A stretch of 64,000 bases of DNA, from positions 24,065,165 through 24,129,164 of the forward strand of contig JARFYF010000050.1 in NCBI GenBank assembly GCA_030265395.1. Direction: 5' to 3'. Below are positions 3,556 to 42,224 of this stretch, one piece after another. Within the stretch, counting starts at the first letter, position 1. The number at the start of each line of letters is the position of its first letter. Made by a program: the position numbers and the translations under genes. The stretch is from Rhina ancylostomus (lineage: Eukaryota). The notes beneath the pieces are model-generated. The model was not told the origin of the DNA. It worked only from the letters and a program-made list of their open reading frames with translations, and ran no database searches.

Positions 3556-6500
3556 TCATCTTCTTTAAGCTGAGGGGTACAACTCATTCACCAAATGGCT
3601 ATTATTGCCAGATGGAAGAGCACAGGTGTTCAAGGGAGTTTTGTTCACCATTTTACAAAGCTTCTTTATATAACAAACTCCTTTCCATTGACCTATTCAA
3701 AAAGACTGTTGAACATAACTGATGTTAAGGGACCTGTATTTGAAAGACAGTCTCCAAATGCTTTCGCTCTCCTTCATTGCAATGAAATGAACTTTCATTA
3801 TGCACTAAAATAAATTAAACAAAACCCTTTGTTGTAGGGAAGATTCATTAAGTGAATGCTTGCTAACCAGGGGGATGCTGCATTGAATAATTCAGCCTGC
3901 AGAGCTCTTTGGGGTAGAGAAAAGAAATTCTTCCTTATCTCAATCATAAATAGAAAATTTATCGTTTGTTCTCAACTCCCATAAGAGTGGAAACACCTTC
4001 ACAGCATCATGTCCCCTCATAATCGCGGATCGAAAAACAAAAGCTGTTATAATTTTATAGGAGAACTGTCAGTATCTAAAAAGGGAAAAAAAACTTTGAG
4101 GAAGAGCTGAGATTTTCTGATCAGTGTTAACATTTTTATTNNNNNNNNNNNNNNNNNNNNNNNNNNNNNNNNNNNNNNNNNNNNNNNNNNNNNNNNNNNN
4201 NNNNNNNNNNNNNNNNNNNNNNNNNNNNNNNNNNNNNNNNTTGAGGAAGAGCTGAGATTTTCTGCTCAGTGTTAACATTTTTATTACAGAAAAGTGAACA
4301 ATATTAGAATAGCGCAGATTGGAATACCTAGGCTTCAATCTTTTTCCGTTCAAGTGGTGCTGCACTACTGGTATTTACTATGTAACTTTCCCAATTATTT
4401 GCTACAATGTTTCTATGATTTTACAAGTGCTATTAAATCTGTGCTGATCAGACAATGATAATGGAAACAGTTGTAAGACCATGAAATTAAGAAGTTCCTA
4501 ACTCTAAATTCCCAACAATTCTGAGAACATTCTATCTGAACAAACTGTACTGGTTTTATGCTTGAAAGGCCCTCTGATAAATTTCTTTTAATTTCTTGTA
4601 TTTTTTTTAATCATCTTGTCCTACTGCCAAATGAGAGCAACTTTTTAAATCTTCTGGTCCTTGGCCAAACGCAGGCAAATGGAGCTAGCTCAGATAGGCA
4701 ACTTGGTCGGGCTGAAGGCCCTGTTTCTGTGCTGTATAACTCCATGACTCTGTAACTCTGGTCTAATTGGTTCCTCCCGCCCTCATGTTTCATGCAGCAG
4801 TTAACAATTATGTATTGTGATTTTCATACTCACTGGACAATAATAAATTTTTTGGATCTGAAAGGATTTTACCTTTGTCAACTTTTTGCCTTGTGGGTTT
4901 TTGCCTCAACAAAAATCCTGTCGATGTTATGGGTTTAATGCCAGAGTTTAATGCCAGTATTTCTTCCACTCAAGGTAACAATTCATTCTAGTGAGATTTT
5001 ATAAAGCCCATAGTTGCTAACACAATTGGTCAATTGGTGCATATCAGGTGGTGAATGTTAAATATGAGTTCATTCAAGCTTGACCCCTTGCCTAGTGCTG
5101 GCTCTTGATAGTTGTAAAAGTTTCTTTGATTGGTTTCAGTGTTCCTGTGAATCAGGAGGGAGAGCTGGATTTTCCTCTCCAGATCACAGTCCAGTTTCAA
5201 AATGTACTCGTGTGTTTAACAGCTCAGGACAGGACCAAGTTCATCTGTCTTGCTCCACCAGTTGAATAGTTTCCTAACATTCGACTACCTGAAATCAGCC
5301 TTGAAGAATATATATTTGATTAGCGTGATGGAGGATACCAACCCCCTGTGAACCATGGTCCAGACAAAGCTTTCTCCTTCTGGGGAGAAAGAAGAGGCAG
5401 GATTCTTGTTGAAAATACAGACTATTAATTTACTGCAACTTCTGTGGTGGAGGTGGTGTTGGGTTGGGGTGGAAGGCTTGAGAAGACAAGAGGCTGTGTG
5501 TGTGCGTTGAATACATTACTGGTTAAGTACCCAGGTTGCCATGCATACATTTGAATAGTGGGCACTGTGTAAGCTAAAGGAGCACAGGGCTGACTGCATA
5601 AGTTATTGCCGCATTATTCTTCTATCTTAATCTGCGATATAGTTAACATCTTACAAGGCAGTTTTATTGCGAAACATTGAGATGCTGTTTTCCTGGCTCA
5701 CCACTTAGTGGTGACATTGATTTGTTGAACAGATATGATACTGAGAAACACCTCAATCTGGTTAGTGGGGCTTGAATTTTGCATTAACAAGCAGGATGGA
5801 GAGGAACATCAGCAAATGTACTACATTGTTTGAAAGTCTTAGTTCTATAAAACCAAATTACATCCATGGAATTAGTTCATGAGGCTTCAGCACATAAAAT
5901 TTCAACATAGTCACAAAGAAATCCTTTGTCTGCACATCAATTGTAACAGATACCACATTTATATTAAAGTAATAATATTGACAAACCCTCAGTACCAACC
6001 CTGTGTAGCCACTAGAGGCGATGAAGAACTATACACTGAGGATGCCCACTGATTTACAACTACAAAACGGTCATTTGTGTGAAGTGTTCAAAACCAATTT
6101 CAATAGGGTAAAAAGAGGACATTTCCTGAAATCAGATATAATTACAGTGGTATGCAGCAACAGAGAATCTTAGGTCCATGTCCTAAATTGGTTGCCTGGA
6201 TTAATTCCAATTAACGGGGGGTAGTGACCAGATTCCATGGTTGTCAGGCTGTAACCAATTTTGGCTGGCAAAGCATTTTGTTTTCTATATTTATATTTTC
6301 TCTATATTCTAAAGTATATTTTTCTTTGTTAGAGGTGTTATGTACTGTTGCTATTGTTGCTGTTGATTTACAATCCATTCACAGTATTAGAGGGATTGCA
6401 TGTACGAGTCTGCAGGCTGGGTGAAGTCTGCCAAGGATGTGGGCTTTTTGAAAGATTCTACTTTACTTCCAAAGTTAAAGCCTTCATGAAAAAAAGATCT

Positions 6501-10712: not shown

Positions 10713-11153
10713 GTAAATAATTTGACTTTTGTTGCATAGAATAACAAGTAATATTTGGATTGATTTTAGACTCAAATATTAATGTCCAATTTTTTGGAGA
10801 CATTCATTACAATCATGATATTGCATAGGTTCTCTTGAATGCTGTTTCTCTTTTCCATACCATCAAGTGGCATTTCACTGCAGTTCGTGCTGTGTTAAGG
10901 ATAAAAATTCAACAATTTTCTCTCTCTCATAATCTCTGAAAAAAAATGTGACGTGGATGCAAATCTTTCTGTGGCATTCTTTTGTCAGTCAAAGATTAAG
11001 AAAGGTGCTTCATTAAAATTGATGCTGTACTCATAGAGTAATACTGCATGGAANNNNNNNNNNNNNNNNNNNNNNNNNNNNNNNNNNNNNNNNNNNNNNN
11101 NNNNNNNNNNNNNNNNNNNNNNNNNNNNNNNNNNNNNNNNNNNNNNNNNNNNN

Positions 11154-15889: not shown

Positions 15890-16460
15890 ATCAATTTTCA
15901 TAGATGCACCACAGAAAGCATCCTATCCAGATGCATCACAGCTTGGTATGTCAACTGCTCTGCCAAAAGCTGCAAGAAATTGAAGAGGTTTGTGAACACA
16001 GCTCAGTCTATCATGAAAACCAACTTCTCTCCATTAATTTTGCCTACATTTATTGCTGCCATGGGAAAGCAGCCAACAAAATGAAAGACCCCTCCCACCC
16101 AGGTCATTCTTTCTTCTACCCCCTTCCATTTGAGAGAAGATACAAAAGCTTGAAAATATGTACTACCAGAGTCAAGGACAGCTTCTATCCCATTGTTATA
16201 AGACTCTTGAACAGACCACTTGTGCAATAAAGGTGAACTCTTGATCTGTCAATCTACCTCATCATCCCCTTTGCACATTATTTGTCTACCTGCACTGCAC
16301 TTTCTCTGTAGCTGTAACACTATATTCTATACTGTGTTATTGTTTTTCCCTTTGTACTACCTCAATGTACTTATTATTGGAATGATCTGTCTGGATGGCA
16401 TGCAAGCAAAAGCTTTTCACTGTATCTCGATACATGTGACAATAATAAACCAATAATCAA
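15890..16460 (+). mobile_element. Rex1/Babar-type LINE 3' end
   Basis: KAANKMKDPSHPGHSFFYPLPFERRYKSLKICTTRVKDSFYPIVIRLLN, then a 3' UTR ending tttcactgtatctcgatacatgtgacaataataaaccaata. Confidence 0.8.
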
Positions 16461-20040: not shown

Positions 20041-20117
20041 GTCCTGGATGTAAAAGACTTGGAATTGATGATGACAGAGAAGCAGTCCCATTAGCACTGC
20101 AGATTGCCTACTGCAAG
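20041..20117 (+). CDS. PIK3R5: PIK3R5 coding exon (77 nt)
   Basis: aatgtag|GT...AAG|gtatgc. [26 protein letters not shown] resembles human [26 protein letters not shown]. Confidence 0.96.
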
Positions 20118-20595
20118 GTATGCTGTGATACATACGTCTCAGTTAGAATTCCTGGAAAATGGTGGCATAGGTTTCGAATGACTCAAAACAAGGATGCAAT
20201 CTAATTGAGAAATGAAGTACATGGCTAACTGAGGAAGAGCGGTATGATGTCAAATTGGAAAATCAGGCACAGAACATCAAAGATTAGCAGTGAGGCTGGA
20301 AGATGGCGAACATGTTAGAAGCTAGCAAAGGATGACCAAAAAGATAGAGGGATAAATTGAGCATGAGGATAAGCAAGCAAGAAATGTAAACACAAATAGA
20401 AGATCTACAAATATATAAAAAGAAAGAACACAACCAAAGTAAATATTGGCCCCTAGGACAATGAGGCTGGGAAGTAATTATGGGAAAGAAGTAAANNNNN
20501 NNNNNNNNNNNNNNNNNNNNNNNNNNNNNNNNNNNNNNNNNNNNNNNNNNNNNNNNNNNNNNNNNNNNNNNNNNNNNNNNNNNNNNNNNNNNNNN

Positions 20596-20730
20596 AGTTG
20601 TGGGCATGCTGTGTTGGCGCTGGAAGTGTGGCGACACTTGCGGGCTGCCCCCAGAACACTCTACGCAAAAGACGTATTTCACTGTGTGTTTCAATGTACA
20701 TGTGACTAATGAAGAAATCTGATCTTATCT
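20596..20730 (+). mobile_element. SINE 3' half (Rex1-tailed family), directly after a gap
   Basis: agttgtgggcatgctgtgttggcgctggaagtgtggcgacacttgcgggctgccccc..atttcactgtgtgtttcaatgtacatgtgactaat; same family as 22060, 30018 and 46135. Confidence 0.85.
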
Positions 20731-20734
20731 TAAA

Positions 20735-21107
20735 TGTTACCTGCCTCGCCCACTATTTCAGGCAGCTCGTTCCAAATACGCACCACCCATTGTGTGAAGA
20801 AGCTGCTCCTGATGCCCCTTTTAAATCTCTGATCTTAAACCTATGCTCTTTTGTTAGCACCCCCTCCTTGGGAAACAGACTGTGAGCTTTCAGCCTGTCT
20901 ATATCCCTCATGATCTTATACACCTCGAGCAGGTCACCACTCAATCTCCTACATTCCAGGGAATAAAGTCCTAGTCTACACAACCTCTCCCTGTAACTCA
21001 GGCCCCTAAGTCCAGGCAACATCCTGGTAAATCTTTTCTGCACTCTTTCTAGTTAAATAACATCTTTCCTCTAACAGGGTGACCAGAACCGTGCACAATA
21101 CTCCTTG
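20735..21107 (-). mobile_element. CR1 LINE fragment
   Basis: ORF 20753..21043 reads QKRFTRMLPGLRGLSYRERLCRLGLYSLECRRLSGDLLEVYKIM. Confidence 0.9.
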
Positions 21108-21484
21108 TAAATGTCTCTGTGTCTTATTCGCAGGGCAGAACCTCTCTGTGCTCCAGAAGTGGGAGGGAGAGGAGGGTGGGTGTCTCCGTTGAACAGGACC
21201 AATTGCAACAGACCCTGGAAGTTTATGATTGGAGAGAGGGAGTTTGATTGGCAGTGCAATGATCCAATCCCAAACAACATAGAGCAGAGCACTCTAGTGG
21301 ACAGTATTAAGACTGCATCCATCACCAGGTGAGAAAATTTGCCTTTAATACCTATACACACCAGTGTTCAGGACTGTGAACCTTTTGTTTGGGTGAGAAC
21401 TCTGTTATTATTGTTTAAATTGAAAATTCATTGAAAACCAAATCCTATCACACACTAACCATGTGCATTTAGATAGCACCTTTA

Positions 21485-21808
21485 ACATCCTGAAGTCCCA
21501 CACCACAGGTTCAAGAACAGCTACTTCCCTTCAACCATTCGGTTCTTGAGTCAACCGGCACAACCCTAATCACTGCAGTTTAGCAACACCATGTCCACTT
21601 TGATCATTTTGCACAAAAATGGATTTTATTTTTGTTCTAATTGTGTTCTCTTGTAAAAACTGTGCATAGTTTATGTTTCATTTAAGATTTTCTTGTGAAT
21701 GCTGCTTATCTGATGCTCTGTGCCTGTGATGCTGCTGCAGGTAAGATTTTCATTGCACCTGTGCACACATGGACTTGTGCATGTGACAATAAACTGGACT
21801 TTGACTTC
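21485..21808 (+). mobile_element. Rex1-type LINE 3' end
   Basis: caccacaggttcaagaacagctacttcccttcaaccattcggttcttga (RFKNSYFPSTIRFL), with tail gcatgtgacaataaactggactttgact. Confidence 0.7.
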
Positions 21809-21867
21809 ATGTACCGTATTACCTGCCTTATGATTTTTCACATGCCAAACTCCTCCTTTGTACACAG

Positions 21868-21952
21868 TGACTGCCAGAACAACACCTCAGCGTGGAAAGC
21901 CCTAAACCTGGGCCAGAGCTTTAACCTGGATGAGTACCTGAACCTCGGCAAG
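21868..21952 (+). pseudogene. Orphan prominin-family (PROM1/CD133-like) exon nested in a PIK3R5 intron
   Basis: Acceptor ctcctttgtacacag|T and donor AAG|gtacgt. 85 nt, phase 2 to 0. (S)DCQNNTSAWKALNLGQSFNLDEYLNLGK resembles recalled human PROM1 [29 protein letters not shown]. 23 of 28 codons end in G/C. Confidence 0.72.
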
Positions 21953-22059
21953 GTACGTCCAGGGTTGTTGGAACCCTGTTCAGTCGCTCACCCAAATCAG
22001 CTTACACTTCTGGCGATTGTTCCAACCAGCAGTGAGACCATTTGAGGTTGGTCTTGAGT

Positions 22060-22318
22060 CAGCGCCAGTGACCCAGGTTCAATTCCGGCCACTGTCTGTA
22101 AGGAGTTTGTACATTCTCCCCGTGTCTGCGTGGGTTTTCTCCGGGTGCTCTGATTTCCTCCCATATTCAAAAGACATACAGATTAGGAAGTTGTGGGCAT
22201 GCTATGATGGTGCTGGAAGCGTGGTGACACTTGTGGGCTGCGCCCAGAACACTCTGTGCAAAAGATGTATTTCACTGTGTGTTTCCATGTACATGTGACT
22301 AATAAAGATATATTATTT
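22060..22318 (+). mobile_element. tRNA-derived SINE (Rex1-tailed family), 5'-truncated
   Basis: B-box ggttcaattcc, core ctgtctgtaaggagtttgtacattctccccgtgtctgcgtggg, tail tacatgtgactaataaag. Confidence 0.88.
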
Positions 22319-22393
22319 TAAGTGTATGTGGATTTTCAAAAGACAATTCAGTAAGATGCCACGTCAATCGTTACTGCACAAAGCAAGAACCCT

Positions 22394-22627
22394 TGGAGCA
22401 GCAAATAATCTGCTGGAGGAACTCAGCAGGTTGAGCAGCATCTGCGGATGGAAAGGAATTGTCGATGTTTCGGGTTGAAACGTTGCATCAGGATGCAGTC
22501 CCAATGCAGGGTTTCAACCCAAAACATTGACAATTCCTTTCCTCCCTCAGATGCTTCTTGACCCGCTGAGTTCCTCCAGCAGATTGTTTGTGGCTCCAGA
22601 TTCCAGCATCTGCAGTCTCTTGTCTCC
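22394..22627. repeat. Palindromic (inverted-repeat) interspersed element with about 100-nt arms
   Basis: tggagcagcaaataatctgctggaggaactcagc..gggttgaaac is the near reverse complement of gtttcaaccc..gctgagttcctccagcagattgtttgtggctcca. Confidence 0.88.
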
Positions 22628-24539
22628 ATAGGAACTCTTGGCCTTGGAGGTAACATATGAGCATGGAGCGGGGATTTGACCAATGAACAGTGTAGAGAAA
22701 AATGAGCAATTTCCATGTCACACCCTTAGAGTTTAGAAGAATGAGAGTGGGCTTGACAGGACAAAAGCTGAGAAGATATTTCCACTCATGGAAGAATCTA
22801 GAACTAAGGATCATAATTTAAGACAGATAAGGAAGAATTTCTCCTCTTTGGAATTCTCCACCACAGAGACCTGGTGGTCATTGAATGTGTATATGGTCAA
22901 GCTAAGTATTTGGTCTATAGATCAGTCATGGGTCATAAGGAACAGGCATGAAAATGGAGTTGGTTTCATGACAGAAGATCTTACTGGATGGTTCAGGAGG
23001 GTTGGAGGGGACGTGTAACCTTTTCCTCTTAATATTTCTTATATTCCTGAGTGATTTAATGTTACCATTTTAATAAACGAATATAGGAAGATAACCATCC
23101 AGCAGTGTAGTGTTACGTATTAATTTTATCTGATGTTAATATTTGTTATAGATTTCATAAGACAGAAGTATGAAAGTCATATTAATGATGTTTTGAACAC
23201 AATAATATTCATAAAAAATAACTTGGTCTAGAATTAAAGCAAATAGGAAGAGTTTTTAGATCCCTTTAAAAGTAGGTTTGTGGAAATAATTTCGATCACT
23301 GGGTGAGCAGACGTTGGGCCATGCCACTGCACCAGTTTAATGATGGGGCAGTGGGGTGCAGGTCAAAGTTGAAGAAAAATGGTGCTGTTGTGATTTTTTT
23401 TAATGAAATGTTTTAAAATTGAGTGATACTTGAGAATGTAATCTGGAACATATAATTTTCAATGTATAATTATTTTTAAGATATACATCTCAGAAAGAAG
23501 GAACTGGTTTCAAGGTTGAATTGTTCCTATTTTTATGCAGTCCATTTTGCAACAAGCCTTTGCTTGCACTGCAGACTCCTGTTAACTGGAAAGTTAACTG
23601 TCTGAACAGCTGAAGAGTGCTAATGGAAGTAGTTAAAGCTGTGCCAATGTTGATTTCAAAATAAAGAGAGTAACATTTACTTATAATATCATACCAGAAT
23701 TGACAAATATACTCTCTTGCCCTGATAATCAAAAGTAGAGAAAATACTACACAACATAAAATATATAATTTATAAATGTTTTCTTATGCTCTTAAAGAAG
23801 AGTAGAAATAAAAGGGACACTTTGGTTTAAAAGGGATAATCTCTGAAAATACAGAGGCTAGCAACAAATGACAGACAGCCTTAGCTTCAACCAAGTTAGA
23901 AGGGTTCAAGTTTGTCCAGAGACCTGAACACTTAAATAGAAAGAGTATACTGGAAATACTACACAGATCAGGAAAATCTGTGGAGAGACAAAGAGTGTTA
24001 ATACTTCAGACCTATGACATTTCATCAGAAATGAGAAAAGTTAGCAGTCATGTTAGCGAACATGTTTTAAGTTGCAGATAAAAGTGGAGATAACAAAGAT
24101 GAATGTCTGTAACACTTTGGAGACCAAGAGAGATTAAATGACACAGATAGTCTTGGTGCCAAGTGAAAAAGAGTGGTGAAGGCTTATTTGTTATAACTGA
24201 TCTGCATGCAGGGGATGTAAGTAGAAGAAGATGAATAAGAACAGAAGAAAAAAAAATGCTGGGATCATGGCCAATTGCAGTTGCTGGAAATCTGAAATAA
24301 AAGCAAATGCTGGAAATACCCAGCATATCAGGCAGCAAGTGTGAAGGCAGATTAAAACTGAATTACTGTTATAGTTTGATGGCATTTCCTTAGAATTTGT
24401 CAGTTTTTACACAAACCAGCAGAAAAACTATCAAAGATTATGTTGTCAATGAACACAGCAGTGAGATTAGTAACTCAGTTACTTTTAAATTTGCAAATAA
24501 ACATTTTTTTTCAATTAAATATATAATGACATGCAATAA

Positions 24540-24700
24540 GAACAGAAAATGTTGGAAACACTCAGCAGATCAAACAGCATCTATGAATAATGAAGGTTCT
24601 AGGACCTGAAACATTGACTGTTTCACTTTCCAGTGATGTTACCTGACCTGCTGAAAGTTCCCAACGTTTTCTGTTTTTATTTCAGATTTCCAGGTTCTGT
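24540..24700. repeat. Palindromic element, same family
   Basis: aacagaaaatgttggaaacactcagcagatcaaacagcatc pairs with gatgttacctgacctgctgaaagttcccaacgttttctgtt. Confidence 0.75.
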
Positions 24701-24843
24701 GTTTTCTTTTCATTTTCATATAAAGACATGCAAGTTAGTAAAATTGCAACTCTAAAAATTATTGTTTAAACATTTATTACGGAGAGGAAAATATGTCAGC
24801 AACATATTTTAATAGTTTATAATAGACATTTCTCTTCCACCAG

Positions 24844-24937
24844 GCAACAGTCAGCAGAAGAAGCCAATGGAACAATGTGGAAAAAAACTGCACATCTGTA
24901 AACCTAAGCAAGGCTTGTAAGAATTATGATGAGCTAG
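24844..24937 (+). CDS. PIK3R5: PIK3R5 coding exon (94 nt)
   Basis: ttccaccag|GCA...CTA G|gtaata. ATVSRRSQWNNVEKNCTSVNLSKACKNYDEL resembles human [31 protein letters not shown]. Confidence 0.95.
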
Positions 24938-25233
24938 GTAATATTTTTAATTGCAATCATTTTGCTTTCTTGGAATGAAAAATAGGACCTTATCTAGATT
25001 TTTGCTGATGGGAAAGTGATTGTGTTCGGTAAATAGCACATCACTCTATCGTAAAATTTGATTCATTCTATGCTCACTCATTACTTAAGAGTTTACAGGT
25101 ACAAGTACTATTATTGCCATTCAATCACATACACAATGTAACTATATATTTTAAACAGAATTCTATAGCTTACAATTTTATAAATTTTAGCCAATATAAC
25201 CAACTTCTAAAATAAATTCCTATTTTTTGTTAG

Positions 25234-25316
25234 AATTCAATACAGAATATCTTCATCTTTCCATGACTGAGGTGGTAAAGCGACAGAACTCCAAATCCAA
25301 AAAAAGTTACAATCAG
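25234..25316 (+). CDS. PIK3R5: PIK3R5 coding exon (83 nt; VVKR motif of the G-beta-gamma-binding region)
   Basis: tttgttag|AA...CAG|gtaagc. EFNTEYLHLSMTEVVKRQNSKSKKSYNQ resembles human LTLNLTEVVKRQNSKSKKGFNQ. Confidence 0.96.
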
Positions 25317-26614
25317 GTAAGCACAGGCTTATTGTGAGATTAAGAATTCAAAGAATTTGCTTTGAAGAACCATAATTGATCAGCAAGGTTTAGCCACTGC
25401 ATTGGGTAATTCAGGAAATGAAAAAAAAAATTCAAAAATGTTTTTACTTAATATTCCAGTGACCTTCAACTTAATTTTTGCACTTTGTTGTTCTGGTGGG
25501 GAGTATTGTCTACTGGAAGCACAAATTAAAAGTGGTCAGAAAATCACGTACAATACATGGTCACAATACACATGGCACAATAGTATACAATTAGTCCTTT
25601 AAATTTTTGTTTATAATGGGATTAATTAAATCTTTATTTAAAGTACAGTAAATGGCATTAACAAATTTAACTGAAGTGAAAGAGAAGGTTTTAATTGTTT
25701 TAGGTTATTGGCAGCAAGTTGGCAGAAGTACTGTGCTTTTATTTGCATCTGTTCTTTTAAAAGTTAATAGGGTGTATACAAAATGGCATAACCTGTTCTG
25801 GTAAGAATCACCCAGAAAAAAAGTGAAAAGGAGCAGGTATTAAATCACACCATTTACATATTAACAACGAAACAGAGCAAATACAGATTTTAAATTTTTG
25901 TAATTTTGTATTCACACACTCCTATGTGAATGTGTTTAACACAGACAGGACCTAAATATTTCTACAGGAAGCATGATATTATGAAACAATCTTCCAAGTA
26001 AGCGCCAGAGATGAAAGAACACATTTCACCCCAATCTATTATTATCATCTTTTTCTGTAATCTATGTATTCACCTCCATTCCTAACATTATCACTGAAGT
26101 GCAGTTCTACGGTTTGTGATCATCCTGCTGCACAAGTGGCCTTTATTTATATATTATACTTGACAATGATTGCCTTGGGCTGTCTGATAATAAAGATGTC
26201 ACGACTGGGTGGACCTCTGATATCTCCTAATCATCCCACAAGCACTTGCTGTGTGCCACAGAGGAGCAGGAAGTCTGGTTGATATTACTCTTCTAAATTT
26301 GGCACCTTATTGAGACTTAACTAACAGATAAGATGCATAACTCAGTTCAAACAAGGGAGGTAGAAAAATATTGCCTCATGCTGTAGCAGCCCAGAGGCAA
26401 AAAGTATTACCTCTGTCCCAAGGAAATAACCAGGAATTTATAAATAACCAGAATTAAAGTTTTTGATTGCTAAGAAAATGCAAGCAATTGCATTGAAAGG
26501 GAAATTAATTAATGGTGAATAGAACATTTGATAATAAGTACATCTTCCATAGAATATTTGTCTAATCCACATACCGTCAACATTATTTGAAATAATCTTT
26601 TTCTGCTATTTCAG

Positions 26615-26730
26615 CAAATAAATATAACACAAATCAAGATTGACAAAGTACAGATAATTGGAGTCAATAATACCACATTTGCAGTTTGTCTGGACCAGGA
26701 TGAGAAAAAAGTTATTCAAAGTGTAACCAG
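26615..26730 (+). CDS. PIK3R5: PIK3R5 coding exon (116 nt)
   Basis: tatttcag|CAA...ACC AG|gtaggt. [39 protein letters not shown] resembles human [38 protein letters not shown]. Confidence 0.96.
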
Positions 26731-28085
26731 GTAGGTGAATTGTTTCATCGCTTTCACCTCTTATTTTTTCAAATTTATTTCAATATATGAAACAAAGCTG
26801 TGGTCGTACTGTGATGGTTTGTTATTACTTTTGCTCATATATAATATTTCATCATAATGTAGCTACAGTTTTGTAGGCAACTGTATCCTTTTACAAATAC
26901 AGTAAGTAGCTAGTCAATCTATTTTCTGGGGTATTGACCAGAACAAGTCCCTTTCCTTCCTCAAATGTGTCATGGGATATCTAACATCCTTCTGTAAGTT
27001 AGTTTCACTCCTCCGAGAGAGGACCCCTGCAGAATTGCAATCACCTTCTCCCATAGTTCTGTTCTGGATTGCTCGGCTCATTTATATGCAGTGAGGCCTG
27101 CATCTTTTGCCTTCTAATCCAGAGACAAAAGTGCTGTCCACTGAGATGTGACCAAAATCAACCTTCAAGGCTGTAGAATTATCCCAGGCAGCTTTTCCAC
27201 TTTATTCCACAATCTTCAGTGTTTGATTTGCAAGTTGTTACACGATCTTTAACTTCATACACTGCACTTCTGTTAATCAGAATCAAGACAATATTCTTGC
27301 TTTGGCATGTGAGTGTTATTTTATTTTTGCAGCTTAAGGATGAAATGATGTTAATAAATGTTAAGATTGGCACTTGTAGGAACCCGAAACTAGAGGTCAA
27401 AAAAATAGATCAAAAAGAATTTAGGAAACTTTATTTGAGAGACTGATTGGAATCTGAANNNNNNNNNNNNNNNNNNNNACAATAAATTCGCCTTGTCATA
27501 TAAAAAATGATCATATAGTTTCAAAAAGAAGTAGTTAGAACTGCGACATGTATTTAGCTTTTTCTGCATTTATTTCATGTTATATGAAATAAATATGAAA
27601 TAAGGAGTGTTTATTGTGATCATTAAATGCCTGATCATGAGTACATTTTAACATATATAATATATAAATGTGAACTAGTTGTTGGTCTACTATTTACTCA
27701 ACATTACGTAGAATTGTTGCACTTTTGAAGGACCAACTGGTCTCTCTTAATTTCACTAAATGAGTTGGCACCCTGTATCATATTGGGACATTCACAAATA
27801 TATGAACAGTGATAGGTAGGAAAAGGCCATCTATCCCATCTAGGGTACTCTGTATATCACACATCTGTACTTTCTAGCCCACCAACAATCATGTGACAAG
27901 TTAAAATGCTGTCATACATAAGCATCTTCAAAAGAAGTTAAATGTTGCTGGAAAGTCAGAAAATCTTCAGTGAAACTGTATTGATTTGGTAGAGCAGTAA
28001 AATATGTAGCATNNNNNNNNNNCTCTTTTTCTAGTTTGGATCCTTTATTTTAAATGAAATGTTATTTTGTCTTTCTTTTGTTTAG

Positions 28086-28233: not shown

Positions 28234-30017
28234 GGATAGCAGATGATGAATCATTATCTCTACGGACTGAAAATGTGGCCAAAACAATGGAGCTGATTTT
28301 ATATTTTGGTCTGGCACTGTTACAACTATTTATTGCAATCAGTATATTTTTTTTTATTGAGCCTAAAATAGGCATCAAGTGAAATAGAAAGGCACTGCCA
28401 ATTGAAGTTGAGCTCCAGCTGGTAGAAATGGCACCACATAGACTGTTTAATCGCCATTGCTAATGAGGCTGCTTGGGAAGGGAGAGGGGAAATGGTTCCT
28501 TGATAAGTGGTGGCTACTTATTCCAGAAACTGTTTCAGAAAATGAAACCGTAAGTGTCCTGGCAGAAGCTAGCTCATACCTCAACTAAAACACAAAATGA
28601 CCCCATCCCATTTTCATATTGACACACTGAAGCAGATGGTGCATCCAGAGGTCATTAGGTTAATTGAGTAGTTTAGCTAATTTAGAATTAGATGAGGGTA
28701 AGAATTTGGTGCAGAGGGGAAAAGGTGCTTCTTTTCATCTTTAACACTTATAAGCAATTATTGTGTAAAACAAAATAATATAGAGAAAGCTTAAAGGTAA
28801 ATATTTAAAGATTTTTAAATATGTAAAGATGAAAGGTTAGGGTATCTAAACTACATTTCACAATATACAAGATTTTCCATCAGATTCCATTGAAATGAGG
28901 TAAATTTCTGGACATGGTGACACTGCAGGACAGTGGCTAGTGATTGGTTATTGAGTAAAACACATTTATCAGTCCTTTTGTGAGTAGCCATTAAGAAATT
29001 TACTTTTCATAGGTATTGATATCAAAACTGCACGTGGTACTCCAGGTGTTGCCTGACTAAAGTCCTCTACAATTGTAGCAAGTTTTTCTCACTTTTGTAT
29101 TCTAATCCTCTTGCAATAAATGCCCACACACCAGTTCCCTTCCTGAGTCACTTGCCTCTCTCCCTAAGATCTTTTACCTCAGCACCACTTTCTTGCACTA
29201 ACTGCATATCCATGATTAGGAATGGTCTACAGACCACCAAATATTGGAAAATAGATGGAGGAAGGGAAATATAAATAAATTGAGGACATGTATTAAAAAC
29301 ACTGAATAGTAATAATAATTTGAATTATCCTGAAATTAATTGTCCAGATCAAATTGTTACAGGGAGAAAGGAAATTACTTCCTACAATGTGTAGAGGACT
29401 CCTTTTGAACTCAATATTTTAATCACCAAAAAAGGGAGATTTTATTATAGGATTGAGTGAAGGGGAACTTTTCAAGAATAATTACCATAATATAATATAT
29501 TTTTGGATAATAATTCAAAGAATGTAAGTACAATGAAGACCCAATGGTTGATAGACCATGAGGACCTATTTTATTAAATTATCAAGAGACATAAAATGAT
29601 AATAAAAGTTCTGCAGCACAAAAATTTTAAATGAGTTAAGATGGGTATAAAATCAAATTGATTAGAAGGATAAATATTACAGGCAAAGATAACGAGATGA
29701 CAAATATTAAAAAGTAATTTGGGTTCAGTATTGGCCAGGAGACAGATCACATTGTCATGACATTGGAAGGCAAGATTAGAATTAATATAATTACATTTAA
29801 TATTAGAAAGAACAATAATATTAAATGAAATAATCAAAGTCAAAGTGAAAAATCCTTTGATCCAGACAGAGTGCATCTCCAAACAATCTTTTTAAAACAA
29901 TCTAGTGAAGAGTTAACAGAGACATCAAGATAATATTTGATTAAAAAGAGATGTATGCCAGAAGATTGGCAGATAGCTAACACAATATGCATATTTAAGA
30001 AGGGAGATGGAGCATGT

Positions 30018-30312
30018 GCAGGCAACTATTAGCGTAATGCTATTACAGTGCCAGTGACCCGGGTTCAATTCCGGCCGCTGTCTGTAAGGAGTTTGTACAT
30101 TCTCCCCATGTGTCTGCGTGGGTTTCCTCCAGGTGCTCTGGTTTCCTCCCACATTACAAAGACTTACTGGTTAGGAGCTGTGGGCATGCTATGTGGGTGC
30201 CGGAAGCATGGCGACACTTGCGGGCTGCCCCAGCATGCTCTCAGTAACACAAAAGAACACATTTCACTGTGTGTTTCGATGTACGTGTGACTAATAAAGA
30301 AGTATCTTACAT
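30018..30312 (+). mobile_element. tRNA-derived SINE (Rex1-tailed family)
   Basis: tagcgtaatgctattacagtgccagtgacccgggttcaattccggcc..gtttcctcccaca..atttcactgtgtgtttcgatgtacgtgtgactaataaag. Confidence 0.9.
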
Positions 30313-30399
30313 CTTATAGACCAGTAGAAGAAACATAATAGAATTCCCACTAACAGAGAAAATAGAAAGATAGTTAGAAATAGATATTCCAATACTGAA

Positions 30400-31400
30400 G
30401 AGAGAGTATGGATTTCATGAGGAAAGTCTAGTCTTATCAATCTCAATGAATTCTTCAAACAGCTGACAGATGGAGTACTTAAAGGTAGTGTAGTTAATCT
30501 CACATATGAAGATTTCCCATACGACTTCAAGCTACCTTATAATAGATTGATGTATAAGGTCAAAGCATCCATATTAGATTTTGGAATTAAAGATTTGTTA
30601 TAAAATTTATGGATGACACCATGTGTCAATAATAGCAGTGGTGGTGGATTAGTGGAGGGTAGTGTCATTTGGGGTAGTAGAAGAGAAAATGATAAATTAA
30701 AAGAGGGTATTCATAAATTTGCAGAATGGGAATATTAATTAGTGAATTAATCTAAATACAGATAATAATATGCATAAGGAGGTTACAACTCATTTGGAAA
30801 ATTGGTACTCATATAAGGTGGTGAACCATTGGGACCTGGGAGCATAAATACAAAATTCACTAAATAAAGCAATGTTGTTATTAGAATCATTAAAAATACC
30901 AAACCAGGCACTACATTTTTTGTTTCTCAATGGATATCACTGAAAGATGGAGAAGTTATGCTCAGCTTGTATTAAACCTTTGTGAGGCTTCACCTGGAGT
31001 GTTGTGCACAGTTTGGGTCTCTTCATCATGGATAAGGAAGGATAAATAAATGACAATCAAAAGTGTAAAGTTATATTGTGATAGGTCAAGCATTCCAGGT
31101 CTCTCGTCAAGTGAAAAGAGAAACCAAAAGTGGGACTCATTGGAAGTCTTTAAAACTATGTCAGATTTTGAGAGTAGATGCAGAGAGTGTTTCCACTTTA
31201 TGCAGAATCAAATAGGAAACACACTGGAAGCATCTTTAAGCAAAGAATGCTAAGCATGTGGAATTCATTTCCACACAGTGTAATTGAAGTAAACAATACA
31301 GATTTAAGGGGAGGCTAATAAGTAAATGAAAAAGAGGGTTAGAAGAGGGAGGTTATTGGGGGCATGAATCAAGCATGTTGGCATACACTGCTTCTGCATT
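30400..31400 (+). mobile_element. Highly degenerate CR1 LINE
   Basis: Remnants aaatttatggatgacacc (FADDT-like) and gcttgtattaaacctttgtgaggcttcacctggagtgttgtgcacagtttgggtct (LY..LVRPHLEYC.QFWS-like). Confidence 0.65.
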
Positions 31401-36620: not shown

Positions 36621-39600
36621 CACTGAAATAACACAGAAAAGTCAAATTAAAAACAAAAATAAAGTGAGGAAAGAACATTGATAAATGACTATTTTTTAAA
36701 AAGTCACTATTTTGTGATNNNNNNNNNNNNNNNNNNNNNNNNNNNNNNNNNNNNNNNNNNNNNNNNNNNNNNNNNNNNNNNNNNNNNNNNNNNNNNNNNN
36801 NNNNNNNNNNNNNNNNNNAAAGTCACTATTTTGAGATTTATTCTTATTTATTGTAAAGGTACAGGAATATTTAGTACTTATGGAATGATTGATAAATGGT
36901 ATATCGCAAAAGTTCATCAAATTGGATTCTACACTCTCCAATGTGGTGCATCAATTACACATCACTCCTCATTACACATCCACCCAGTGGGTGCCCTGGC
37001 ATGTTTTTGTATTCATAGTGAAACAAATCAAAGGCTAGTTTGCAAAATTGGGCAAGATACAGAAGATGAGCAGTTTGTTAAATATATGCAGAATTAGGAA
37101 ATTTAGCCAACACCTTGTCAAACACCAATGAGTTTGGGAGTTACAATTTTTTCATTTTCTGTTATTTATATGCCATCCTTCAGTGGGGGCTGAGACATAT
37201 TGCTCAGATCCCTGTGCTGATTGCTGAGATATTCTTGACCCTTGAAGGTTTTGTAAGTAATAGGCATGAAACAACAGAAGTGGAAGTGCTCTGCGTAGAG
37301 TTCCTGATTCCATTTCCTCTGAATTCAATCCTATTCTGGGCCAATGCTAAATCAGTCCTACGATCGTGGGGAAATTGGTGAAGATTGGTAGGATATTGTA
37401 AAGATCTGTTATCGTACCTGAAATAGCAGCCGGAGCAATTCAAAGTCTGGAATTAGGAATAAATCTCAATGAGACTTTTAAATTAATCACCTATAAATGT
37501 ACTATCCTCTCTTTATTTTCCTTTTTAGTTTGACTTTANNNNNNNNNNNNNNNNNNNNNNNNNNNNNNNNNNNNNNNNNNNNNNNNNNNNNNNNNNNNNN
37601 NNNNNNNNNNNNNNNNNNNNNNNNNNNNNNNNNNNNNNTTATCCTTAAACTTAACTAGTTCAGGAGAAAACTTCCCATCACAGATGCTGCCTGATCTGCT
37701 GAGTTCCTCCAGCAGTTTGTTTTTTTGGACAAGTTACAATCCTTTTATAAATGTAAATGATTCAATCATATCTCTTCAGAGTTCATATTTATCCTAGTAA
37801 GAACCCCAAGCTCCCTGACCCTGTTCAGAGAACTAAGAACCCTTAATCTAGGTTTCAGTCTTATGGTTTATCTCTGAACCTTCTTCAGAGCTCTTACAGT
37901 GTTTGTCATGGGAGGGGAATGATGCTGGATGCTGTATCCAAGATGTGGGCTGACCAAGGGTTTTCTCAGGTGAGAACCATTATTGAAGCTTAGTGGAGTG
38001 AGACACTCTCTTTCTTCATGCTGGACTTTGTACTTCCCTGATCCATCAATCCAGTAGACATTGTGTTTGACTCTGCCATCTGCTCTGTTATTGGAGAGAG
38101 TGTACATAGCTCAGTTATGAATTACTGATGCATCTCTGGCATGCTTCTTCTCAATAATGGTCCACAAGATTTAGTATCTANNNNNNNNNNNNNNNNNNNN
38201 NNNNNNNNNNNNNNNNNNNNNNNNNNNNNNNNNNNNNNNNNNNNNNNNNNNNNNNNNNNNNNNNNNNNNNNNNNNNNNNNTATTTTACTTATTATCATAA
38301 GTAGTTATTAATAAAGTAGTTCTTAACACGTATACATGTCTCGGTGTGTTTCTGTTGTTGCTGGTACGTAACACCAGTCTCAGGTGGAACAATGGGAGGC
38401 CCCATCACCATTGGGTACTTATGCATATGTGAGATGTGAACATCTAGGTGAAAATATAACTAACTACCAAAGTTGACCCACTTTAGTGCAAGCAGCTGCA
38501 CTGGGGTATGGCTATAGGTCTGTGACAGTGTACAGTCAAGAGGAATGAAGACCTCTGGTTTTGGTTTATTATTATTATCACTTGTACTGAGGTACTGTGA
38601 AAATCTTGTCTTGCATGTTGATCATAAGGGCAATTCATTACACAGTGCAGTAACATTGAGTTAGTACAAAGGGCATTGATGTAGTACAGGTAGAAACGAT
38701 AACAGTACGGAGGAACTATCCTCTGAGTTCCTTAGTTCCTCTGAGGAACTATCTTCACAGATGTCATACGACACTTAAAAAATTCAGATGCTTGTAGACA
38801 AAAGAAAGGAAATATGATTTAGTTGTGCTAAAATCATAATTAGGTATTTAATTAAAATTGGCTTTCTTGCATTTTTAACCACTGTTGACATGAAGCTAGC
38901 ATATTGTATCTCCATGCTTGTCTTATTTTTCCTGTTGTTATTGAGCTCTGTCTTTTGGTCTTTGATTGAGAGGGATGCAGATGTGCCACTTATCTGTGTG
39001 GACTGTGCCGGTTGCAGTAAACCACCTTCAGTTCTGCCCCTTTATTGACATGTTGTTCCTCCTTGTCCCATTAGGAACAAAGAAACAGGCCTCTGACAGA
39101 GTAAAGGTGAGTTTTTCACATGGTGGATTCAGGGCATTCCAAGACACTGATATGAGACAGATGAATCACACTGTGTAAGGGTCGAGGTGACGGCCAATGG
39201 TAGATGGCTAAACGGCAAGATAACGAAGTGGTTCAAAGTGAACATTGGCTGCTTTTGGAAGCTGATGTGATAACATGTTCGCATGGCCAATAATCTTGTA
39301 TCAAAACACAAAAGTAGGTATTATTTGGCATCATATTTGTATGAGAAATATTACATTTGTTTAGCTATTTGTATTATAGCTTCCTCACTAAACCAGTAGA
39401 ACTTGGTTGACATATATGCAACATATCAACTACACTAAAGTTATGACCACAAAGTGCTACCAGATGTAAACGTGATGTTTCTTTAACCAATAAACTCCAT
39501 TACAGATTTAAGGTAACTCTAAGTAAAGAATTATTCCAATAATTAACAAAATCACAAGCTGGATCTGGATGCCAAAGTTTTTTTCTTGGCCATTGTAGTT

Positions 39601-40899: not shown

Positions 40900-41720
40900 C
40901 TAAATAATCAGTTAAGGAGTGTTCGGTGAATTTCAATTTGGGATTCGGCTGCATTCTTATTCAACACCGCACTGCGACGCCCGCAGAGTGTGCAACATCT
41001 TTCATAGCCGAGGGAATCCGGGGCTGCCTGTTTAAATCCATTTGTTGTCTCTGATTTGTAAAGAACGCACTGAAGAGTGACAAAGATATTGACCAACTTT
41101 CACTCTGGCAAGCTTTCTAACTTTACTTCCTGAAACGGGTTGGACTGGCGTCCATCTGAGCCAATGAGAAGCTGCGGTTGGATTCACTGCCATCCCCAGC
41201 CTCGGCTCGTTGCAGGACTTCGCTCTGGGCAAATTGAGATGAGTCTTTGGGCTTTCGGTCCAGAATTGATTGACTCTGGAGTTCGCTTCACCAAGTGTGA
41301 CGTTCACAGCTGGAACTGGGAATCAAAGGCAACTGCAACCTGTTGGCGAGTTTCAACCAGTGAGTCCAAATTCGATTTATGTTCTGATGTGGAACTATTG
41401 ATTCTCTTTTTTGCTGGTCAGTTTGTTAATTTGAGTCGCTTTATAATTGCGTCCAGGTTGTGGTCACTGTAGGATTGTCTTGAGACAGATGACTGAATGA
41501 TACAATACAGTGAGAACGTGTAAAGATGAAGTGCACCCATACAGCTCTTTTGGCTTTGTTGTTGGCGCTGTTCAGGAGCACGGTCCCTGGTGTGCCTCCT
41601 GACAGCTGAAACTGTTTGCAGAAACCGGTGCTCAAAATGTAGTAAAGAGATTCTGTGATGATAAGCAACCGCCCAGATTTCTGGAGGCGCCGGTTGACTG
41701 TTAAACCGGCGTAATTATCA
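40900..41720 (+). promoter_or_regulatory. CpG-enriched promoter-like region with putative non-coding first exon
   Basis: Visibly more CpGs than the flanks and no recognised repeats. ETS core ACTTCCTG at 41125-41132, NF-Y-type GAGCCAATGAG (CCAAT 41161-41165), and consensus donor CA|GTGAGT at 41360. Confidence 0.55.
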
Positions 41721-42224
41721 CATTCAGTTCTCTCAGTGGGGTGGAAAGCTTAAGAGCAGCTCAAAATATCATCATCAAATGTCATCAAAATATCATCATC
41801 GTTGGTAATCTAGACAGGCATTTTACAGCTGGCTTAATTGAACGTGTTCTACTTTACTGTGGCAAAGTTTCGTTGCTTGTGCCTTTCTGTTTCTTGATTA
41901 GTGGACATGTGATAGCGATGGGAAACTGGCTTTTCCGTGGGGAAATGTCGAATGCTTTAGACGTTTATGGTGAGGTCATAAGCTCTGTGATCATAACAAT
42001 TTTCCGAATGGCTCGGGGCTCCCTACATATTAAGTAGCTGGTCTATGCAGTCCAAGAAGGTCTGAGACTTGCCTCCCTATTCAAGGTTAACTTGGATGTC
42101 AGATGCTACAGTTAGTCGCAACACTCTTGGGTGAAGAAAAGGAAGCTTTGACCAGGATTTCTACTTCTGATGTCTGCAAAGAGAAGTGTGTCTGTGTGAG
42201 AGAAAGAGAACATTAGGTGAATCC

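Follow-up and report, generated by a model that had tools for sequence, protein, structure and literature searches.

A prominin-2 exon within a PIK3R5 intron of the Rhina ancylostomus assembly and its probable origin in a SINE-mediated contig misjoin

In a stretch of 64,000 nucleotides of the Rhina ancylostomus assembly GCA_030265395.1 (the window), an intact prominin exon was found inside an intron of PIK3R5. The exon was carried by a 1.7-kb island (20596–22320) that interrupted an old CR1 LINE of this intron, with a gap at its left edge and a SINE with mismatched flanks at its right edge. We consider the island probably to be a chimeric contig, joined computationally through the SINE in a fragmented assembly. 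This weighting and that of the three other readings rest on rough priors.

Identity and divergence of the exon

The preliminary description had reported an 85-nt segment with an acceptor and a donor, open in phase 2 to 0. This was confirmed for 21868–21952, where no other frame was open. The Pfam search that it had called for gave a match of the exon peptide to the Prominin model (PF05478, model positions 541–566, E = 0.0041); the score of 15.7 bits was below the whole-protein cut-off of 34.3 bits, as expected for 28 amino acids. Only this segment reached a Pfam E value below 0.05 among the 137 open AG..GT candidate exons outside PIK3R5. Five matches were obtained with phmmer in 1.84 billion proteins. 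Two were prominins, with a ray prominin (Mobula hypostoma, E = 4e-8) as the top match, and the others (P0122, P0124 and P0125) were repeat-rich non-prominins and were dropped as noise.

The exon peptide was aligned without gaps to prominin-2 of Pristis pectinata (XP_051883849.1), with 27 of 28 residues identical, and to XP_062927387.1 of Mobula hypostoma, with 25 of 28. Across the 14 shark and ray orthologs besides that of Pristis pectinata (15 in all), 18–25 of 28 residues were identical. The identity to the 'prominin-2-like' paralogs was 6–12 of 28, and to three non-mammalian PROM1s 10–11 of 28, again gap-free. In a midpoint-rooted tree of 25 selected proteins, the parent clustered with Xenopus and Crotalus Prominin-3 and with ray-finned prom2 (support 95/94), and PROM1 was placed apart. 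PROM1, the paralog to which the exon had first been aligned, was contradicted as the parent by both the identities and the separate clade. The residue preceding the exon had also been misassigned, as Ser; it is Arg in the ray parent protein. By its sequence, the exon is a genuine fragment of the prominin-2/prominin-3 clade and not of PROM1. Database names of prominins are misleading because one ortholog is named prominin-2, prominin-1-A-like or Prominin-3 depending on the species, and because sharks also have a separate 'prominin-2-like' paralog, which clustered with coelacanth prominin-2 in the tree.

The exon corresponds to aa 547–574 of Pristis prominin-2, located between the fourth and fifth hydrophobic segments (470–508 and 776–799), and its earlier assignment to the second large extracellular loop was therefore correct. 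The prominin homology began and ended exactly at the splice sites; a conserved genomic organisation has been described across prominins (PMC3047580). In these homology limits and in its identity to the Pristis and Mobula proteins, the exon resembles chondrichthyan prominin-2 ('prominin-1-A-like'). Unlike that gene, the window holds a single exon, with Gly for Ser at position 27, and this exon sits inside PIK3R5. With 121 prominins as queries, tblastn found no second prominin exon in the 64-kb window, in agreement with the preliminary description, and a complete five-pass, multi-exon prominin gene was absent from the locus. A processed pseudogene was rejected, as the single exon keeps both splice sites and the adjoining exons are absent. 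Searches of PDB sequences with the exon peptide and with Pristis prominin-2 gave no match, and 21868–21952 did not lie within any repeat recurring elsewhere in the window.

The exon differed from Pristis prominin-2 by one residue, compared with 0.55 expected for a native gene, and its frame and both splice sites were intact. Judged by this count, it is no more diverged than native prominin-2 should be; one replacement fits a native exon and a young copy alike. The sole difference, Ser to Gly at position 27, removes an N-glycosylation sequon. At this position, Ser was present in 114 of the 121 prominins and Gly in none. The position accounted for 2 of 49 changes among the 15 chondrichthyan orthologs, which is an average rate.

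G or C ended 23 of 28 codons of the exon and 8 of 25 in the PIK3R5 exon at 20041–20117, the counts on which a foreign composition had first been proposed. Over all 13 PIK3R5 exons in the window, the value was 285 of 702 (Fisher p = 1.6e-5), a total that includes one extra codon since one exon was begun 3 nt early (25231, with the AG at 25232–25233). The single exon used as comparator overstates the contrast, yet the contrast stands and the foreign composition holds.

The PIK3R5 host and the anatomy of the island

The features of the host gene, the host intron and the island were (window coordinates, strand in brackets):
359–28232 (+), the final 13 coding exons of PIK3R5, stop-free, with about 97% identity to aa 159–865 of the Pristis pectinata protein
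20041–20117 (+), PIK3R5 exon upstream of the host intron, ending in phase 0
20362–20495 (+), remnant of the host CR1 ending at the gap, ORF2 aa ~372–417, 0 of 200 shuffles scoring as high
20496–20595 (no strand), N run, a 100-N unsized assembly gap over the left junction
20596–20727 (+), 3' half of a SINE with which both contig and island begin, 88% to 22189–22320, same family
20733–21103 (−), 3' fragment of a younger CR1-type LINE in the island, ORF2 aa 812–938 of reference P0286
21105–21454, non-repetitive island DNA
21134–21328 (+), unexplained open AG..GT segment of 195 nt from phase 2 to phase 2, with a second possible acceptor at 21157
21455–21808 (+), 3' end of a LINE-like repeat with a tail common with the SINE, from alignment to the copy at 16116–16445
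21809–21867 (+), 3' end of the upstream prominin intron, non-repetitive, polypyrimidine tract and CAG
21868–21952 (+), coding exon of the prominin-2/prominin-3 clade, 85 nt, phase 2 to 0, by Pfam, phmmer and protein alignment
21953–22057 (+), start of the downstream prominin intron, 105 nt, non-repetitive, not CR1
22058–22320 (+), SINE-like repeat at the right junction, slightly 5'-truncated, 84–85% to two other near-full copies
22322–22394 (+), host CR1 resuming after the SINE, ORF2 aa 598–621, 0 of 200 shuffles scoring as high
22725–22840 (+), 3' piece of the host CR1, ORF2 aa ~870–908, 0 of 200 shuffles scoring as high
24844–24937 (+), PIK3R5 exon downstream of the host intron, starting in phase 0, on the same contig as the prominin exon

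PIK3R5 in the window was about 89% identical to the Mobula protein; with the higher identity to Pristis, this points to a ray of the sawfish/guitarfish type. The host intron (20118–24843) is in phase 0. Spliced into PIK3R5, the prominin exon would contribute a stop as its first codon, with four coding exons following. Premature stops ahead of later exon junctions lead to mRNA decay. The splice sites of the prominin exon scored 8.6 and 9.2 bits on the same strand, within the range of the 11 scored PIK3R5 exons, with a matrix built on approximate frequencies. Given these strong sites and the immediate stop, undecayed persistence of the exon in an intact PIK3R5 would be unexpected. No insert was present at the host-intron junction in 17 aligned PIK3R5 proteins of cartilaginous fish and coelacanth. 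Prominin-2 and PIK3R5 were located on sequences of different length in all 15 sharks and rays listing both proteins (57.8 Mb and 44.7 Mb, respectively, in Pristis), which makes a nested or adjacent gene unlikely.

Among the 137 candidate exons, Pfam recognised no other foreign coding exon in the window, with the limitation that it misses many short exons. It also recognised no coding exon in the 36 kb after PIK3R5 (28233–64000); from synteny, PIK3R6 had been expected near PIK3R5. Downstream of PIK3R5, at about 40950–42100, a GC- and CpG-richer block of non-repetitive appearance may represent a promoter or a conserved element; the three candidate exons in it had no Pfam match. At 39075–39106 (+), a short AG..GT segment has a very strong donor and might belong to the following gene as a non-coding exon. 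Rfam and ARAGORN found nothing at gathering thresholds; sub-threshold miRNA-like Rfam matches at 22439–22553 coincide with an inverted repeat pair inside the host CR1 (22394–22598; 100-nt arms, 84% complementary, 5 nt apart).

The non-repetitive DNA of the island contained 44% GC, a value reached by 2 of 69 host-intron windows of the same size. The 105 nt past the exon (21953–22057) contained 50.5%, reached by 6 of 369 windows. The alignment of 21455–21808 to its copy scored 98, and shuffled sequences reached at most 76.5; this repeat is presumably Rex1/Babar, and the family of 22058–22320 is taken by us to be a SINE. Within the assembled island, no target-site duplication of at least 7 nt was detected, the left side being hidden in the gap, and there was no run of six A. 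The view that an intron-flanked, non-retrocopied piece of a prominin gene derives from another, GC-richer locus was supported.

The 195-nt segment at 21134–21328 had the top splice score of the 137 candidates outside PIK3R5. Its homologs were absent from Pfam, the Atlas and the stored proteins. It was rejected as a second prominin exon, given that absence and the lack of an insert at this place in 44 chondrichthyan prominin-2 isoforms. Running from phase 2 to 2, it would be in frame with the prominin intron around it, and is possibly an unannotated prominin-2 cassette, or chance.

Assembly join or genomic insertion

The host CR1 pieces were mapped on a CR1-type ORF2 protein instead of the window DNA; DNA alignment to the window's old CR1 (29150–31400) failed for four of the five pieces. 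We presume the element to be CR1-type from its similarity to an endonuclease-plus-RT protein. An expected fourth piece (22627–22724) did not map to ORF2 (197 of 200 shuffles scored as high). Two such proteins, P0285 and P0286, are labelled Proteus mirabilis and Carnobacterium maltaromaticum at NCBI, lie on contigs of 1.7 and 3.0 kb and are 70% and 62% identical to the CR1 ORF2 piece of the ray; by this likeness, they are probably vertebrate DNA contaminating bacterial assemblies.

The SINE at 22058–22320 had CR1 on its right side only, and its left flank was not CR1 (52 of 200 shuffles scored as high). In contrast, ORF2 continued on both sides of the two control SINEs in CR1 (30030 and 46138), one of which showed a 6-nt duplication in the alignment. 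Since its flanks come from two loci, the SINE is the right junction. At the left edge, the island abuts the unsized gap, and ORF2 aa 418–597 of the host CR1 (about 540 nt) are missing from the window's intron. The SINE half against this gap belongs to the same family as the junction SINE and has the same orientation.

These edges suggest the following course of assembly. The true PIK3R5 intron would contain an old CR1 LINE interrupted by a SINE, and the prominin-2 locus, on another chromosome, would have the same SINE about 105 nt past this exon. Going leftward from PIK3R5, the assembler would have entered the SINE, come out along the wrong flank and continued through about 1.5 kb of prominin-2 intron, exon and intron before breaking at the next SINE. 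The PIK3R5 portion would then have determined where the contig was placed, next to a 100-N gap of unspecified size. On this reading, the exon would be the animal's native prominin-2 exon, without a role in PIK3R5, and we infer that the parent locus carries the island's flanks.

Misjoins of contigs can be induced by repeats such as SINEs. Both misassembly and contig chimerism have been documented as problems of genome assembly (PMC7757076). The arrangement resembles a repeat-induced chimeric contig in that the junction lies in a high-copy repeat, the flanks derive from two loci and the other end coincides with a contig break; it is a candidate for this class. The assembly is fragmented, with 21 gaps in the 64 kb. 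Duplicated ends were present at 3 of the 11 100-N gaps; at these false gaps (4141–4240, 11054–11153 and 36719–36818), the two sides overlap by 45, 30 and 19 nt. Both testable sized gaps matched the length of the missing repeat within 15 nt, and the gap at the left edge is unsized. Between SINE copies of 85% identity, long exact words are shared sufficiently often for such a join, with the genome-wide copy number extrapolated. A misjoin would also account for the near-native sequence of the exon with its intact frame and splice sites, and for the missing target-site duplication and poly(A). If the island were real, splicing would put a stop into the PIK3R5 mRNA, yet PIK3R5 is intact and the splice sites are not decayed.

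Several observations speak against a misjoin. A single contig without gaps (20596–27458) carries the exon together with three PIK3R5 exons, and both control SINEs were crossed correctly by the assembler. The Ser-to-Gly change is one that a copy freed from constraint might show, but this position is of average variability among the orthologs. The collinear host CR1 pieces could be coincidental separate insertions, the expected fourth piece scored no match, and a 3-nt match on either side of the SINE at 22058–22320 could be a short duplication. The same anatomy would also be expected from a real insertion mediated by SINEs.

Such an insertion, the second of the four readings, is possible, and we rate it as less likely than a misjoin. 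Through homology-directed repair, or as the patch of a double-strand break, about 1.5 kb of prominin-2 DNA between two SINEs would recently have been copied into a SINE of the PIK3R5 intron. The resulting orphan exon would either be skipped or serve as a poison exon. The two boundary SINEs, the contiguity with PIK3R5 exons, the replacement absent from 121 prominins and the host sequence lost at the site are consistent with it. In primates, an Alu was at the breakpoint of 9 of 14 analysed duplication junctions, and pre-integration sites had lost sequence (PMC7419210). The island shares with this Alu-associated duplicative transposition the SINEs at its edges, the left one a half copy against the gap, the retained introns, the interchromosomal origin and the lost acceptor sequence; the described blocks are far larger, and one junction is unassembled here. 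Templated insertions from distant loci have been described in humans (PMC5110952), in a LINE-mediated class 1 and a class 2 that patches breaks, and likewise place a piece of a distant locus inside an intron. The island does not have the target-site duplication or poly(A) given for class 1 in PMC5110952, is longer than the experimental insertions reported there (73–414 bp) and has its junction within a repeat. A real duplication must be very young, with at most one replacement, its left junction is not assembled, and damage to PIK3R5 would be anticipated from splice sites that are still intact. As a rough prior, misjoins would be several-fold commoner in a draft of such quality. The more specific version, in which a recent interchromosomal SINE-to-SINE recombination made the prominin-2 exon a poison exon that lowers the PI3K-gamma adaptor p101 through nonsense-mediated decay, is improbable.

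The third reading, an RNA-mediated copy, is improbable. Unspliced prominin-2 pre-mRNA would have been retrotransposed, primed at the 3' tail of the intronic SINE, or moved by LINE 3' transduction. This would likewise produce an intron-flanked exon ending in a SINE within CR1. All of this is on the sense strand, the host CR1 resumes directly past the SINE tail, and this tail is common with the LINE-like repeat just upstream of the exon. Against it, the SINE differed from the majority of the other copies at 21 of 245 positions (8.6%); compared half by half for chimerism of the SINE, it did so at 12 of 122 and 9 of 123 positions. A copy of that age should have accumulated about five replacements, and the probability of at most one is 0.036, which disfavours this reading. 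The island also offered neither a duplication of at least 7 nt nor a poly(A), with its left end hidden. That the exon functions in place, in a nested or relocated prominin gene with its other exons in gaps or as a coding cassette of PIK3R5, is very unlikely: its frame and splice sites are intact and N makes up 2,971 bases of the window, but the 121 prominins found no further exon, the two genes are on different sequences in 15 of 15 species, inclusion in the phase 0 intron gives an immediate stop and the 17 aligned PIK3R5 relatives have no insert at the junction.

The preliminary description held that a prominin piece had been placed in PIK3R5. Its foreign origin stands, and a real insertion is possible and rated less likely. 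Placement by the assembler, which that description did not consider, has to be weighed: both edges of the foreign block lie at points where assemblies break down, on one side a SINE whose flanks disagree and on the other a gap of unspecified size.

Implications for the assembly and for exon movement

Whether it reflects a common fault of assembly or one more case of a known type of dispersed duplication, the arrangement is ordinary. Nothing joining PIK3R5, prominin and an intron was found in a literature search, which had most subscription journals outside its scope. As an artefact, the favoured reading, the island would be a warning of repeat-mediated misjoins inside contigs of GCA_030265395.1. 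The prominin-2 model of this assembly may then miss the exon, and the loss of 85 nt would mimic a frameshift. If the island is real, it would be a dated case of an exon moved by SINEs in elasmobranchs. This would be of modest interest, and of more only if PIK3R5 transcripts include the exon as a poison exon. It would then represent exon shuffling observed at its very beginning in a cartilaginous fish.
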